Part shown: piece after piece, positions 31,617 through 37,520 of the stretch
Position numbering within the stretch: the stretch's first letter is position 1
How the letters are laid out: each line of letters opens with the position of its first letter
NCBI RefSeq assembly: GCF_013315695.1
Contig: NZ_CP054353.1
Length of the DNA: 64,000 bases
DNA from: Escherichia coli
GTDB taxonomy: Bacteria > Pseudomonadota > Gammaproteobacteria > Enterobacterales > Enterobacteriaceae
Reading direction: 5' to 3' (one strand)
Made by a program: the position numbers and the translations under genes
Notes under the pieces: generated by a model
Databases searched by the model: none
The model's input: the letters and a program-made list of their open reading frames with translations, nothing else
What the model was told of the DNA's origin: nothing

Positions 31617-32783
31617 ATGAACTTACATGAATATCAGGCAAAACAACTTTTTGCCCGCTATGGCTTACCAGCACCGGTGGGTTATGCCTGTACTACTCCG
31701 CGCGAAGCAGAAGAAGCCGCTTCAAAAATCGGTGCCGGTCCGTGGGTAGTGAAATGTCAGGTTCACGCTGGTGGCCGCGGTAAAGCGGGCGGTGTGAAAG
31801 TGGTAAACAGCAAAGAAGACATCCGTGCTTTTGCAGAAAACTGGCTGGGCAAGCGTCTGGTAACGTATCAAACAGATGCCAATGGCCAACCGGTTAACCA
31901 GATTCTGGTTGAAGCAGCGACCGATATCGCTAAAGAGCTGTATCTCGGTGCCGTTGTAGACCGTAGTTCACGTCGCGTGGTCTTTATGGCCTCCACCGAA
32001 GGCGGCGTGGAAATCGAAAAAGTGGCGGAAGAAACTCCGCACCTGATCCACAAAATTGCGCTTGATCCGCTGACTGGCCCGATGCCGTATCAGGGACGCG
32101 AGCTGGCGTTCAAACTGGGTCTGGAAGGTAAACTGGTTCAGCAGTTCACCAAAATCTTCATGGGCCTGGCGACCATTTTCCTGGAGCGCGACCTGGCGCT
32201 GATCGAAATCAACCCGCTGGTCATCACCAAACAGGGCGATCTGATTTGCCTCGACGGCAAACTGGGCGCTGATGGCAACGCACTGTTCCGCCAGCCTGAT
32301 CTGCGCGAAATGCGTGACCAGTCGCAGGAAGATCCGCGTGAAGCACAGGCTGCACAGTGGGAACTGAACTACGTTGCGCTGGACGGTAACATCGGTTGTA
32401 TGGTTAACGGCGCAGGCCTGGCGATGGGCACCATGGACATCGTTAAACTGCACGGCGGCGAACCAGCTAACTTCCTGGACGTTGGCGGCGGCGCAACCAA
32501 AGAGCGCGTAACCGAAGCGTTCAAAATCATCCTCTCTGACGACAAAGTGAAAGCCGTTCTGGTTAACATCTTCGGCGGTATCGTTCGTTGCGACCTGATC
32601 GCTGACGGTATCATCGGCGCGGTAGCGGAAGTGGGTGTTAACGTACCGGTCGTGGTACGTCTGGAAGGTAACAACGCCGAACTCGGCGCGAAGAAACTGG
32701 CTGACAGCGGCCTGAATATTATTGCAGCAAAAGGTCTGACGGATGCAGCTCAGCAGGTTGTTGCCGCAGTGGAGGGGAAATAA
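31617..32783 (+). CDS. sucC: Succinyl-CoA synthetase beta subunit
   Basis: 388 aa [18 protein letters not shown]... Confidence 0.97.
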
Positions 32784-33652
32784 TGTCCATTTTAATTGAT
32801 AAAAACACCAAGGTTATCTGCCAGGGCTTTACCGGTAGCCAGGGGACTTTCCACTCAGAACAGGCTATTGCATACGGCACTAAAATGGTTGGCGGCGTAA
32901 CCCCAGGTAAAGGCGGCACCACCCACCTCGGCCTGCCGGTGTTCAACACCGTGCGTGAAGCTGTTGCTGCTACTGGCGCTACCGCTTCTGTTATCTACGT
33001 ACCAGCACCGTTCTGCAAAGACTCCATTCTGGAAGCTATTGATGCAGGCATCAAACTGATTATCACCATCACTGAAGGCATCCCGACGCTGGATATGCTG
33101 ACCGTGAAGGTGAAACTGGATGAAGCGGGCGTTCGCATGATCGGCCCGAACTGCCCGGGCGTTATCACTCCGGGTGAATGCAAAATCGGTATCCAGCCTG
33201 GTCACATTCACAAACCGGGTAAAGTGGGTATCGTTTCCCGTTCCGGTACACTGACCTATGAAGCGGTTAAACAGACCACGGATTACGGTTTCGGTCAGTC
33301 GACCTGTGTTGGTATCGGCGGCGACCCGATCCCTGGCTCTAACTTTATCGACATCCTCGAAATGTTCGAAAAAGATCCGCAGACCGAAGCGATCGTGATG
33401 ATCGGTGAGATCGGCGGTAGCGCTGAAGAAGAAGCGGCTGCGTACATCAAAGAGCACGTTACCAAGCCTGTTGTGGGTTACATCGCTGGTGTGACTGCGC
33501 CGAAAGGCAAACGTATGGGCCACGCGGGTGCCATCATTGCCGGTGGGAAAGGGACTGCGGATGAGAAATTTGCTGCTCTGGAAGCCGCAGGCGTGAAAAC
33601 CGTTCGCAGCCTGGCTGATATCGGTGAAGCACTGAAAACTGTTCTGAAATAA
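32783..33652 (+). CDS. sucD: Succinyl-CoA synthetase alpha subunit
   Basis: 289 aa [33 protein letters not shown]... Confidence 0.97.
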
Positions 33653-33751
33653 ATATCTGTAATAAGAAATAGCCCTCGCCGCTTCCCTCTACAGGAATGG
33701 CGAAGGGCTGTCGGTTTCGACATGGTTGGCCATCATATGATGGCCTTTTTT
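33653..33751 (+). ncRNA. sdhX: Probable 3'UTR-derived sRNA of the sdh-suc operon (SdhX/RybD-like), ending at the sucD terminator
   Basis: About 100 nt between the sucD stop and a strong terminator (GGCCATCATATGATGGCC + T6, 33728-33751); assignment from memory of the K-12 arrangement, not a sequence alignment. Confidence 0.45.
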
Positions 33752-33857
33752 ATTCGGGCACTAATCTGAAAAGTTTGCCCACTGCTTTTTTTCCCCATCC
33801 TCTGCGCAATAATGCCCGGCGAAATATCTCCTCTCCGTTCTGTAAAAGGATTTATAC

Positions 33858-35051
33858 ATGAAGAAAATTGTTCTGCCGGTTGCTCTGGCCCTGATGGGTA
33901 TAAATGCGGACGTTTATGCGGCCGATGTAAAGATCGATATTTTAAGTGCAACAGTGAAAGATAAACGCATTGAGGGGGCATCGGTGACGCTGCAACGCAA
34001 TGGCGCACAATCTGTTTCTGGCACCACAAATGCCTCGGGCAGCATTAATCTGGGCTCTTCCTTTGCCGATGATCAAGATGCTTTGTTAATCGTCAAAAAA
34101 GAGGGCTATTCTAATCTGGTGGTCAAATGCCCGTGTGCGGGCATGACTTATGCGATTAGTCCGGTAATGACTAGTCTGGATGGCATGCGTGTCGTATTGA
34201 GCTGGGGCGAAAAGCCTTTTGATCTTGATTCGCATTTGATCTTCCCTGGCGGACATATTTATTTTGATAGTAAAGAGGGGACTGATGCCAATCTGGATGT
34301 TGATGATACGGATAGCTATGGACCAGAAACTGTCACTATCAGCAAAAAGCATTTTGGCGAAAGTTACATCTATGCCGTGCAGGACTATAGCAATAAAGGG
34401 TTGCCCAACAGTAATTATCTCTCTGCCAGTAAGGCAAAAGTGTTTGTTTATGTAGGGGGCTCCCTGGTGCGTAGTTATAGTGTCCCTGCTGGAAAACGAG
34501 GGAACATCTGGACCGTGTTTAAACTCAATCCAAACGGCGAGTTTGAAGATATCAACTCTGTTACCACCGCCAATTTTAACGACACCACATTAGGCGTCAG
34601 GGATTTAGCCACTGTGATAATGCCTGCGACGGGTTCTTCAACTCCGGCTTCACCTGCGATGCAAAACAGTGGATATACTCAACTGGCAAGAAAATATAAT
34701 CGTGAAGGCGAAGCTGTTTACAAAACCGGTCAACTTGAGCAAGCCATTCAACTCTTCCAACAGGCAACAGAATTAGACGGCAATTACGGTCAGGCATTTA
34801 GTAACCTGGGTCTGGCTTATCAGAAAAATGGCAACATCGCGGAAGCGATTTGGGCAAATCGTAAAGCGATCTCGTTAGCCAGTGGAGCAAATGCGGCGAC
34901 AACGCGCGCTAACTCCTATTATAACATTGCCAAAATTTATGAAACTGCAGGACAGAACGCTGATGCATTGCAGCATTATCAACTCGCTTATGCGGAAAAA
35001 AATAAGCCCTCTTATGAAGAGGCCATCGCACGGGTAAAAGCGAAAATGTAG
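33858..35051 (+). CDS. Secreted protein with YfaP-like (DUF2135-type) central domain and C-terminal TPR repeats
   Basis: 397 aa; Sec signal peptide MKKIVLPVALALMGINADVYAA; motif LSWGEKPFDLDSHL...DANLDVDDTDSYGPETVTI as in YfaP-family proteins; C-terminal TPR-like repeats (AIQLFQQATELDGNYGQAFSNLGLAYQKNGNIAEAI...). First gene of the island. Confidence 0.7.
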   Translation: MKKIVLPVALALMGINADVYAADVKIDILSATVKDKRIEGASVTLQRNGAQSVSGTTNASGSINLGSSFADDQDALLIVKKEGYSNLVVKCPCAGMTYAISPVMTSLDGMRVVLSWGEKPFDLDSHLIFPGGHIYFDSKEGTDANLDVDDTDSYGPETVTISKKHFGESYIYAVQDYSNKGLPNSNYLSASKAKVFVYVGGSLVRSYSVPAGKRGNIWTVFKLNPNGEFEDINSVTTANFNDTTLGVRDLATVIMPATGSSTPASPAMQNSGYTQLARKYNREGEAVYKTGQLEQAIQLFQQATELDGNYGQAFSNLGLAYQKNGNIAEAIWANRKAISLASGANAATTRANSYYNIAKIYETAGQNADALQHYQLAYAEKNKPSYEEAIARVKAKM

Positions 35052-35428
35052 CGGTTAGCAAACAGGAGGCTATGTGGTGTTAGCCTCCTTACCCCCAGGC
35101 CAGTGGGAATATAGTAATCATCGTTTTTAACATTCAACGTCCAGATTCTGCTTGAGCGTAAAAACAAGTCTTTAGATATTTTATAAATGATGAAGGGCTG
35201 GAAAGTGGTTGATGTCACCGACTCACGATCGTTATCGCCAGCAAAGCTTTTTTGCCATTGCACCAGACGCACCTTCAACCATTTTGGCGACGAATCAACT
35301 GCTACCGCCACCAGGCTTGTTTGCCATTTTCCCGTACCTAATTCGTCGCTTGCCGCACTGTTGGCTGTAATCAATGGCCCAATGCCCAACCAGATACTTC
35401 TATATCCGATTGGGTTTTGTTAATTGCG

Positions 35429-36025
35429 TTACCCCTTAAACGTTAACCTCGGTCGAAATCTGACCGCTGGCTGAATTAATCCGGCTTCTTGTTGGGCTTC
35501 GATAACCGGACCAATATCTTTATAAGCAGCTGGCGCTTCTTCAATACGCCGTTCTTCGCGCAATGTGACGCATTGCCACGGCAACGTTGACTCTGCAGTC
35601 GCGCGTGAGCGCATGGCCTGCCGACGCTGGCTGCGTCCTGCTCCGTGACTGCAAGACCACAGCCACTCCGGGTTGCCGCAACCAACCGCAAGCCAGGAAT
35701 AATCACCCATGGAACCGGGGATTAACGCCAGATCGCCCGCGCGTGCCGGTGTTGTGGCCACCACAGCGCCAACGGGGACGCCATTGCCGGGATGAAAATC
35801 TGGCGTCGCGCACGTCTGGCGCACATAACCTGGGTGGTCTGGTAGCTTCACTTCTGCAAAATCAAGCAGTTGTGTTACTGCTTTTTCTTCCAGCGGCAGT
35901 TCGTCCGGCAGCAGTACGCGGGCACTGGCACCTGATGGACGAGATAATGAAACAATATTGTTGGCGCGGGAAAGTTGGATCCCTTTGCGCAGAAAGGCTT
36001 TATCAAGCCTTGAAAGATGATGCAT
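35429..36025 (-). CDS. Shortened RtcB-like protein (RNA-ligase family motifs, central region absent)
   Basis: 198 aa; N-terminal PDFHPGNGVPVGAV resembles the RtcB PDxHxG metal-binding motif, and the C-terminus (IPGSMG...CSHGAGR...AYKDI...FKG) resembles the RtcB C-terminus, but the motifs are about 50 aa apart instead of about 300. Confidence 0.55.
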   Translation of the reverse strand: MHHLSRLDKAFLRKGIQLSRANNIVSLSRPSGASARVLLPDELPLEEKAVTQLLDFAEVKLPDHPGYVRQTCATPDFHPGNGVPVGAVVATTPARAGDLALIPGSMGDYSWLAVGCGNPEWLWSCSHGAGRSQRRQAMRSRATAESTLPWQCVTLREERRIEEAPAAYKDIGPVIEAQQEAGLIQPAVRFRPRLTFKG

Positions 36026-36614
36026 AACGCTGTCCTGAAATATAGACGTTAAACAACCCCCTGTATTGCGAGGGTAATTTTGTCTTTCCGGTCAGCAGCC
36101 AGCAAAAGGGAAAGAAAACGCGCGTAGTGTATGTGGCGATAGCAAGTTTTACAAGTGGTAAATCTGGCTTATTGTTAAAGAGGAATTATCTTTTGTGAAG
36201 TCTTTTAAGGCCATGACTCATTCAATTTAACCGGACATAGATAATATATAACATAGGGTATATAAATTTATCATTGTATACTTGTCATAATTCAAGTTGC
36301 ATGTGCTGCATCGATGTTCGCTCACCCAGGTCACTTACTTATGTAAGTTTCTGGAAATTCATTATTTGTTCCCTTCCTGCAACTTGACTTATTTAGAGTA
36401 TATTCATGTATATGAATAATATTCTTGCAATAATAGCTTTAAAGTATTGCATGCGGATAACTGAGGTGAAATTCCTGTTTTAGGATTATTGTCACTTTAT
36501 TTTCCTGGTTAGACATATAGCTGACTGGTTTGTTTATTTGAATTATGATATTCATTAGTGCTACTGTTTTTTATAAAATAATTTTTGAATTGTTATTTTT
36601 TCACGGACGGCATT

Positions 36615-37520
36615 ATGCGAGGAAAAATACCTAAAACGGAACTGCTGGTGACTTTTGAGGTCGTCGCACGTCATGAAAGTTATACCAGAGCGGCAGAGGA
36701 GTTAGCGTTAACCCAAAGTGCAGTATTCAGACAAGTAAGTGCGCTGGAGGAATTTTTACATACTCCGTTATTTTCACACTCTAAAAAACGCATTTTTCTT
36801 AATGATGCAGGGAAGTATTACCTGGGGATAGTAAAAGAAACATTAAATAAGCTGGAACGCGATACCAATACCATTATGACCTGGCAGCCTACGGTTCAGG
36901 TTATTGAACTTGCCGTTAATCCTACTTTTAGTACCCACTGGTTAATCCCAAATTTACATGAATTCACAAAGTTACATCCCGATATTATTGTTAATATTCA
37001 TTCTTTAGCTAATAACGGCGACTTTCTTAATCGGGAGTACGATGCTGTCATTATGCGCGAAAATTTTTGCGCGCCCTGGGCGGAAGTAGAGTATCTCTTT
37101 GAAGAGGAGATTTTGCCGGTATGCAGCGGCAGTTTGCTTGCAATGTCCGATCAAAAACTGTCAGTGGCAGAACTGCTTACTGAGTTACCACTTCTGCATC
37201 AAAGCACCCGTATTACTGGCTGGGAAGAGTGGTTTGCTTTATCTGGCGTTAGCAGTCCGCTGGTCAATAACGGACCACGTTTCGATTTGCTTTCAATGCT
37301 GATTGCCGCCGTGCGCTCTAATCTCGGCGTGGCGCTGTTACCACGGTTCGCTATTCAACATGATTTGGATAGTGGCGATATGGTGATTCCCTGTGATGTG
37401 CCTATTCGTACCGGTAATCGTTTTATTATGACGTGGCAGGAAGAGAAGTCTGACTCACCGCACTTGCAGCAATTTCGTGAATGGTTGCTGGCGAAATCGG
37501 TCGTACCGCAGGAGATGTAA
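36615..37520 (+). CDS. LysR-family transcriptional regulator
   Basis: Start chosen at MRGKIPKTELLVTFEVVARHESYTRAAEELALTQSAVFRQVSALEE (N-terminal HTH) followed by a substrate-binding domain; divergent from the RtcB-like ORF and convergent with the cobA-like gene. Confidence 0.8.
   Translation: MRGKIPKTELLVTFEVVARHESYTRAAEELALTQSAVFRQVSALEEFLHTPLFSHSKKRIFLNDAGKYYLGIVKETLNKLERDTNTIMTWQPTVQVIELAVNPTFSTHWLIPNLHEFTKLHPDIIVNIHSLANNGDFLNREYDAVIMRENFCAPWAEVEYLFEEEILPVCSGSLLAMSDQKLSVAELLTELPLLHQSTRITGWEEWFALSGVSSPLVNNGPRFDLLSMLIAAVRSNLGVALLPRFAIQHDLDSGDMVIPCDVPIRTGNRFIMTWQEEKSDSPHLQQFREWLLAKSVVPQEM

Follow-up and report, generated by a model that had tools for sequence, protein, structure and literature searches.

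Introduction

YfaP (b2225; COG4676) is itself uncharacterized; its gene sits in the yfaS alpha-2-macroglobulin operon of Escherichia coli K-12, and no functional study was found in the literature on YfaP, DUF2135, TerD-like domains or the combination of sucD, cydA and tetratricopeptide repeats (TPRs). The TerD family is represented by solved structures of Klebsiella TerD (2KXT) and of the Streptomyces proteins SCO6318 (2QZ7) and SAV2460 (2QNG), and the ligands of the Ca1 site in Klebsiella TerD are residues 40, 41, 42, 78, 79 and 89 (PMC8779313, citing Pan et al. 2011). Here we analyze a 64-kb stretch of E. coli DNA (the window; all coordinates are window positions), in which an open reading frame (ORF) on the plus strand at 33858-35051 begins with ATG and encodes a 397-amino-acid (aa) protein whose central domain resembles YfaP in sequence and TerD in predicted fold. 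We consider it probable that the product is a Sec-exported, three-domain protein that carries a TerD-fold metal site and serves as a periplasmic adaptor.

An original prediction, made from the sequence, had given this ORF exactly as it is present and had proposed a Sec signal peptide, a YfaP-like core and C-terminal TPRs, all of which are borne out by the analyses below. To these are added the assignment of the central domain to the TerD fold, a putative metal site at conserved positions, an estimate of how large the domain family is, and the pairing of orthologues with a carbohydrate esterase family 4 (CE4) deacetylase in other bacteria.

Domain organization of the 397-aa protein

Residues 1-21 (33858-33920, plus strand) form a Sec signal peptide of the SPI type, with cleavage at MKKIVLPVALALMGINADVYA/AD. 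This assignment comes solely from inspection and a hydropathy scan: the leader contains an MKK n-region, a hydrophobic core from I4 to I15 with Kyte-Doolittle values of up to 2.9, and V-Y-A/A at positions -3/-1, and there is no lipobox cysteine. An equivalent N-terminus is present in all 33 aligned orthologues. The segment that follows, residues 22-95 (33921-34142, plus strand), is predicted to be a β-sandwich of the CarboxypepD_reg/transthyretin-like kind. The AlphaFold2 (AF2) model is all-β in this region with a predicted local distance difference test score (pLDDT) of ∼90, and CarboxypepD_reg (PF13620) matches residues 32-85 with 15.4 bits (E 0.025), below its gathering score of 32.3 bits; the same family is matched in 16 of 34 orthologues, with a best E of 1.8e-5.

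The central YfaP-type domain, with its predicted TerD fold, occupies residues 96-240 (34143-34577, plus strand) and contains an acidic cluster (D122, D124, D147, D149, D150 and E157) together with H126, W116 and W218. It is connected by a low-confidence linker, residues 241-270 (34578-34667, plus strand; pLDDT 59-70), which is poorly conserved among orthologues and contains one short helix at residues 247-254, to a C-terminal module of three TPR motifs and a capping helix at residues 271-397, followed directly by the stop codon (34668-35051, plus strand). Pfam TPR families match residues 278-390 above their gathering thresholds (GA): TPR_1 with 44.5 bits (GA 27.8), TPR_2 with 41 bits (GA 27) and TPR_12 with 39.9 bits (GA 30.1). 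TPR families also match 22 of the 34 orthologues. In the AF2 model, seven helices at residues 271-396 pack as an antiparallel helical-pair superhelix, and the full-length model has a pLDDT of 90.2 and a predicted template modeling score (pTM) of 0.86. Searches with the whole protein return the TPR signal as well, since NCBIfam gives generic TPR similarities only and a search of PDB sequences with the full-length profile is dominated by TPR proteins. Modules made up of three TPRs and a capping helix can act as clamps for short peptides or partner proteins. The same architecture is retained in orthologues across phyla. Taken together, the product is probably a soluble periplasmic protein of three domains, Sec-exported and ∼41 kDa in mass after cleavage.

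The only two cysteines of the protein lie in a C91-P92-C93 motif (34128-34136) at the junction of the two β-domains. The motif is kept as CPC in 26 of 34 orthologues and as xPC in five; in an exported protein, such a motif might have a redox function or bind metal.

Predicted TerD fold and putative metal site of the central domain

An exhaustive HMMER search with residues 22-262 returned 5,515 cluster representatives at E≤1e-3, of which 3,062 were at E≤1e-10, where representatives stand for clusters at 50% identity. The relatives fall into two groups. Members of the first are 380-410 aa long, have the same four-part architecture and are 35-56% identical to the window protein. Those of the second are up to 3,375 aa long and contain the domain one to five times, usually after a clear CarboxypepD_reg (PF13620) domain and in the company of PKD, FG-GAP, thermolysin, DUF4214 and type IX secretion system (T9SS) sorting domains; in these multi-domain relatives, no Pfam model covers the YfaP-type domain itself.

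An AF2 model of the domain alone has a pLDDT of 91.3. When it was compared by Foldseek with solved structures, only TerD-family entries were found at E≤1e-3, namely SAV2460 and SCO6318 (probability 1.00), both of which are TerD relatives by sequence. Profile comparisons gave graded results. The in-register alignment of a hidden Markov model (HMM) of the domain with TerE extends over 123 positions and scores 10.6 bits (E 1.7e-5 in a single comparison), and hhalign against an eight-sequence TerD profile gave a P value of 1.2e-4. With a lone TerD sequence as the target, hhalign of the domain profile did not reach significance (E 0.23), and a search of PDB sequences with the domain profile gave nothing significant (best E 0.32). 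We conclude from the models and alignments that the YfaP-type domain is an exported module of TerD fold, in which a divalent-metal site has probably been retained. The fold assignment would reach a very large family of surface modules, covered in Pfam only by a 48-residue model.

In the sequence alignments, the six Ca1 ligands of Klebsiella TerD correspond to D122, L123, D124, D149, D150 and E157 of the window protein, each of them conserved in between 134 and 161 of the 164 domain copies. When R111, W116, H126, D147, G155-P156, T158 and W218 are added, conservation ranges from 134 to 163 of 164 copies, with H126 kept in 150. Because acidic residues are retained at the Ca1 positions, a divalent metal, Ca2+ or another, is most likely bound by the central domain.

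The two families differ in setting and in detail. TerD of O157 has no signal peptide, is cytoplasmic and is encoded within terZABCDE, whereas the 397-aa protein is exported and its domain is fused to TPRs; the latter also has an additional conserved histidine, and a GPET motif replaces the GDGDDE of TerD. These differences bear on the proposal that the protein is a metal- or tellurite-type stress protein like cytoplasmic TerD, which would sense or buffer periplasmic Ca2+ or metals and would have no glycan or partner-enzyme role. The predicted fold, the conserved acidic ligands and H126 beside the site (150 of 164 copies) are what such a protein would be expected to have. No ter genes are present near the gene, however, either in the window or at orthologue loci, the protein is exported while TerD lacks a signal peptide, and most occurrences of the domain are as repeats in giant surface proteins that also have PKD, FG-GAP and T9SS domains, a pattern better suited to a structural or binding module than to a stress sensor. 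We regard a stress-protein function as very unlikely, and favor a binding module within an adaptor.

Relationship to YfaP

The closest named relative of the central domain is YfaP. BLASTP aligned residues 110-172 with residues 143-207 of K-12 YfaP at 34% identity over 65 aa (E 4e-8), and the central-domain HMM scored 40.0 bits over YfaP residues 142-222 (E 1.7e-14 in a single comparison). The motifs quoted in the original prediction are present, LSWGEKPFDLDSHL at residues 114-127 and DVDDTDSYGPETVTI at residues 147-161, and an identical protein is named 'YfaP (DUF2135 family)' by the Joint Genome Institute (JGI). At the level of sequence, then, the central domain is YfaP-like. The two proteins have in common a Sec signal peptide, a segment just after it that lacks a confident domain match, and the motif R-[VL]-VLSW...DLD.H...LD.D.T..YGPE. 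YfaP has no TPR module, and the DUF2135 segment (YfaP residues 199-244) is too divergent in the 397-aa protein to be matched.

The position of the Pfam model within YfaP accounts for the outcome of the domain search that had been proposed as the refuting check for the YfaP-like and TPR assignments. The TPR assignment passed this search, and DUF2135 (PF09906) returned no match. PF09906 consists of 48 positions and spans only residues 199-244 of YfaP, downstream of the shared motif; as only the final third of the YfaP domain is represented in it, the missing match is an artifact of the model and not an absence of homology. DUF2135 was likewise not among the top 25 Pfam families for the 34 orthologues. 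The model also misses the conserved W...DLD.H...D.D.T..YGPE core, and a family with thousands of members is under-detected as a result. A fold and a putative metal site can now be offered for YfaP, one of the remaining uncharacterized proteins of E. coli K-12.

The relationship raises the possibility that the protein is a YfaP-like accessory of a periplasmic anti-protease or envelope-defense system of the yfaS operon type, with the TPRs recruiting it to another envelope complex. The layout of YfaP is similar, with a signal peptide, an N-terminal region with a weak Pfam match and the same C-terminal domain, and in six of the 34 orthologues the N-terminal region weakly matches the MG3 domain of bacterial alpha-2-macroglobulin. 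Set against these likenesses, the similarity to YfaP spans only ∼80 residues, none of yfaS, yfaT, yfaA or yfaQ flanks the gene in the window or its orthologues at the loci examined, and YfaP, being uncharacterized, predicts little. We judge a function of this kind to be quite unlikely. The conserved neighborhood of the orthologues points instead to an adaptor that works with a polysaccharide-modifying enzyme.

A CE4 deacetylase neighbor outside Enterobacterales

Orthologues were scanned in one genome per species, which gave 80 loci with full-length orthologues from Gammaproteobacteria, Betaproteobacteria and one myxobacterium (Archangium). Clustering of the neighboring ORFs identified one family that is conserved across lineages, a protein of ∼380 aa with a signal peptide, encoded on the same strand immediately downstream. 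It is present at 31 of the 80 loci and under 14 of 17 non-enterobacterial taxon labels. The intergenic distance is usually 9-130 bp (18 loci listed); outside this range are Archangium (284 bp) and Sideroxydans (1,329 bp), and two loci were called with an apparent overlap. At a metagenome locus, the partner gene and the orthologue overlap by 4 bp.

The partner matches PF01522 (Polysacc_deac_1, NodB/CE4) with E values from 1e-13 to 1e-17. It is nearest to chitooligosaccharide and peptidoglycan N-acetylglucosamine (GlcNAc) deacetylases (NodB/PgdA-like), below the equivalog cut-offs. Before the CE4 domain the partner has an N-terminal region of ∼180 aa that begins ∼...DR.TWP..LDS... and has no Pfam match. 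An identification of the partner with E. coli YadE was considered and rejected, since the similarity is generic to NodB only.

Outside Enterobacterales, the orthologue and the CE4 deacetylase gene presumably form an operon, and the TPR protein and secreted deacetylase seem to constitute a conserved two-gene unit in bacteria such as Cupriavidus, Dyella and Pseudomonas. The deacetylase neighbor suggests an envelope-glycan adaptor role for the 397-aa protein. We propose that it would act as a periplasmic adaptor in which the metal-stabilized β-domain recognizes an envelope glycan and the TPR groove holds a partner enzyme, classically the CE4 deacetylase, by analogy with TPR scaffolds that organize polysaccharide-modifying enzymes. 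The gene in Enterobacterales would have been uncoupled from the deacetylase partner, so that the adaptor role may not extend to present-day E. coli. A broader proposal is possible, though we consider it unlikely: the YfaP-type domain, with its 5,515 cluster representatives, would define a large extracytoplasmic branch of the TerD superfamily that has gone essentially unannotated and would act as a Ca2+-dependent module for glycan recognition, and proteins built of a signal peptide, β-sandwich, TerD-like domain and TPRs would be adaptors that present envelope glycan, either peptidoglycan or a GlcNAc-containing polymer, to the co-encoded CE4 deacetylase.

Several observations weigh against the adaptor reading and its parts. 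Structural alignments with the TerD family are at 15-18% identity, and TerD models of Pfam and NCBIfam match neither the whole protein nor the isolated domain, with no Pfam TerD match at the level of HMMER. Sequence-level support for TerD homology is only moderate (hhalign probability 56%), and the metal site was derived from alignment. The DUF2135 model gave no match to the whole protein at E≤1 or to the isolated domain at E≤10 (gathering score 22 bits). No homologue of the deacetylase partner is present in the 64-kb window, and the partner is absent at every Enterobacterales locus seen (E. coli, Pectobacterium, Enterobacter sp., Pseudocitrobacter and Limnobaculum) as well as at approximately three quarters of the Pseudomonas loci; given its absence in Enterobacterales, the functional link may not apply to E. 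coli. Finally, in ∼540 of 1,111 carriers, including ATCC 11775 and ATCC 25922, the last 20 residues are exchanged for six (LHDAIL), with the junction at window position 34988. In these strains homology breaks off 63 bp short of the stop codon, the C terminus reads ...QHYQLA-LHDAIL*, and the capping helix is lost. The replacement may be a sign that constraint on the TPR end is relaxed; the other 571 carriers keep the intact C-terminal end.

Purifying selection on the gene

The gene is annotated in RefSeq, and the same protein is present on >900 contigs. Ratios of nonsynonymous to synonymous substitution rates (dN/dS) were calculated by the Nei-Gojobori method. Relative to the allele of sequence type 131 (ST131), dN/dS is 0.10 at a dS of 0.27, and relative to the alleles of cryptic-clade Escherichia it is 0.18-0.20 at a dS of 0.08-0.10; each of the three protein regions taken separately gives 0.08-0.12. 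Substitutions between the window and cryptic-clade copies are biased to the third codon position ([8,8,26] for the three positions). On the basis of dN/dS values of 0.10-0.20, we conclude that the gene is real and under purifying selection.

This result bears on the view that the gene in E. coli is in decay: a relic of an ancestral resident of the sucD-cydA site, it would have no current function and would be undergoing loss or truncation in one lineage after another. Only ∼20% of complete genomes carry the gene, a recombination junction lies inside it and replaces the capping helix in ∼540 of 1,111 carriers, the usual operon partner is absent, and base composition is low, with 45.8% GC and 44% GC at third codon positions (GC3) compared with 55% in the suc genes. 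Decay is nevertheless difficult to reconcile with dN/dS values of 0.10-0.20 between alleles with dS up to 0.28, equally low in the three regions, with an intact 397-aa reading frame in ST131, the window lineage and the cryptic clades, or with the architecture kept across phyla. A relic without function is unlikely.

The sucD-cydA site and the glutamate-fermentation island

The gene lies 3′ of sucD (32783-33652), the end of the sdh-suc operon, and 1.5 kb from the LysR regulator of a glutamate (methylaspartate) fermentation island. The published enterobacterial cluster consists of glutamate mutase, methylaspartase, DUF1446, GltP, FumD, CobA and a LysR-type transcriptional regulator (LTTR), and includes no protein of the kind studied here (PMC4682846). 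The original prediction had called the gene the first of the island while suspecting that it was a separate periplasmic module, and had proposed that its distribution be compared with that of the glutamate mutase genes. The gene was found in 1,112 of 5,426 complete E. coli genomes (∼20%), once per chromosome, and the island gene glmE in 1,131, and the full 1.8-kb stretch that joins the gene to the start of the island side is present in only five. The island is present without the gene in O55:H7/O157:H7 strains (including O55:H7 CB9615), MS14385 and strain 222, and the gene without the island in ATCC 11775 and EC958. Co-inheritance with glmS/glmL/glmE, mal, fumD, gltP, cobA and the LysR regulator was thus not found; the gene and these genes are apart in most genomes. 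The gene is independent of the glutamate-fermentation island, which bears out the suspicion of a separate module, and its place as first gene is positional only, as each occurs without the other.

A functional role in the island, for example as a co-inherited accessory for periplasmic substrate handling or regulation, would draw on the proximity of the gene to the LysR regulator in the window and on the recurrence of the arrangement at ≥99.8% identity in five complete genomes. Those five genomes stand against 1,112 that carry the gene and 1,131 that carry glmE, and either element is found alone in the strains named above; in addition, an rtcB remnant and a non-coding stretch lie between the gene and the island, and the published cluster has no such gene. 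The proposal is extremely improbable and is effectively refuted by the distribution. Neither the glutamate-fermentation island nor its regulation should be taken to include the gene.

The interval between sucD and cydA (33653-37520 in the window) is a recombination hotspot with at least seven arrangements of five modules: the gene, mngRAB, rtcB, hut and the glutamate-fermentation cluster. The order is sucD-gene-cydA in ATCC 11775, sucD-mngRAB-gene-cydA in EC958, sucD-LysR-island-cydA in O55:H7 and sucD-mngRAB-rtcB-LysR-island in strain 222, and MS14385 has hut genes together with the island. In cryptic-clade Escherichia it is sucD-gene-ORF125-RtcB198-hut and in the window sucD-gene-ORF125-RtcB198-LysR-island, where ORF125 and RtcB198 are the ORFs described below. 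Orthologues at 63-77% identity are located directly 3′ of sucD in Pectobacterium, Enterobacter sp. and Pseudocitrobacter, and directly before cydA in Pectobacterium and Enterobacter sp. Because it occurs next to sucD across these genera, the gene looks like an old resident of the sucD-cydA site and not like island cargo, its low GC content notwithstanding. The multiple states of this hotspot are relevant to the typing of B2 and extraintestinal pathogenic E. coli (ExPEC) lineages, which carry the gene.

The window allele is far closer to those of cryptic-clade Escherichia (dS 0.08-0.10) than to that of ST131 (dS 0.27). The gene-ORF125-RtcB198 block (33858-36025) is also common to the window and the cryptic clades, and the two observations together suggest that the block was imported by recombination.

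Start site and flanking transcription signals

RefSeq starts for the gene are inconsistent. Genomes of the AF3-like type are annotated from M13 (33894), giving 385 aa, and EC958 from M1 (33858), giving 397 aa. The M13 start removes most of the signal peptide. We favor the 397-aa form over the M13 start of the Prokaryotic Genome Annotation Pipeline (PGAP) because only the longer form has both the leader and a Shine-Dalgarno sequence, AAGGA, at 33846-33850 (plus strand), 7 nt before the ATG at 33858.

Upstream of the gene, 3′ of sucD, an intrinsic terminator-like hairpin with a T run is present at 33728-33755 (plus strand; GGCCATCATATGATGGCC then TTTTTTATTC) and separates the suc operon from the 397-aa gene. 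No sigma-70-like promoter was called on the plus strand upstream of the gene in the promoter and terminator scan. Thirteen nucleotides after the stop codon, strand folding identified a perfect 9-bp hairpin, AGGAGGCTA/TAGCCTCCT, with an 8-nt loop and no T tract (35064-35089, plus strand). It may be a structure at the end of the transcript; the folding z-score of the 91 nt around the repeat is only -1.5, and the hairpin was not called by the terminator scan. Rfam gave no match within 33500-36700.

Sequence downstream of the gene

The gap between the gene and the next ORF extends over 377 bp (35052-35428), as originally described. The minus-strand ORF reported there, ORF125 (35012-35389), does exist; it has a TTG start, encodes 125 aa, overlaps the 3′ end of the gene by 40 bp and is annotated in RefSeq as a 'hypothetical protein'. 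When the window and cryptic-clade copies of ORF125 are compared, substitutions fall about equally on the three codon positions ([10,8,14] and [5,6,7]), at a density ∼2-fold that of the flanking genes. The ORF matches no Pfam or NCBIfam family and has homologues only in Escherichia. Given the even substitutions, the lack of a family match and the restriction to Escherichia, ORF125 is most likely non-coding sequence that happens to stay open, and the RefSeq entry is probably not a gene. The idea that it is the remnant of an outer-membrane protein was rejected, as there is no family match, no homologue outside Escherichia and no coding signature. Among complete E. coli genomes, the 376 bp that hold ORF125 are present only in the five window-like genomes.

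From 35428 on, the sequence matches the rtcB gene, which is full-length in other strains; strain 222 has a full-length copy (1,398 nt) at the same site. In the window, a 198-aa ORF encoding a C-terminal fragment of RtcB (RtcB198; 35429-36025, minus strand) covers positions 316-426 of the 426 in Pfam RtcB and bounds the module. In cryptic-clade Escherichia, RtcB198 has an unchanged length, and its substitutions fall mostly at the third codon position ([3,3,20] and [5,4,29]), a strong bias by which the fragment looks selectively maintained. Between the fragment and the LysR regulator, the sequence at 36026-36584 is very AT-rich (GC 33.8%) and holds the deletion point relative to strains with full-length rtcB.

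Comparison with known systems

The TPR module of the 397-aa protein is 17-21% identical to the three-TPR 'carboxylate-clamp' modules of Hop/STI1 (TPR1/2A/2B), PP5, CHIP and SGT, which are cytosolic eukaryotic co-chaperones. A precedent for a TPR scaffold that acts with a deacetylase is found in the bacterial envelope, where the TPR domain of PgaA binds polymer and modulates PgaB (PMC9384988). No synthase, glycosyltransferase or porin genes are among the conserved neighbors of the orthologues. Unlike proteins of the PgaA/PelB/BcsC/AlgK type, the 397-aa protein ends at the TPR capping helix, has only three TPRs and has no outer-membrane β-barrel. What its orthologues in 14 non-enterobacterial taxa have in common with the PgaA-PgaB and PelB-PelA systems is the genetic pairing of a periplasmic TPR protein with a CE4/NodB deacetylase.

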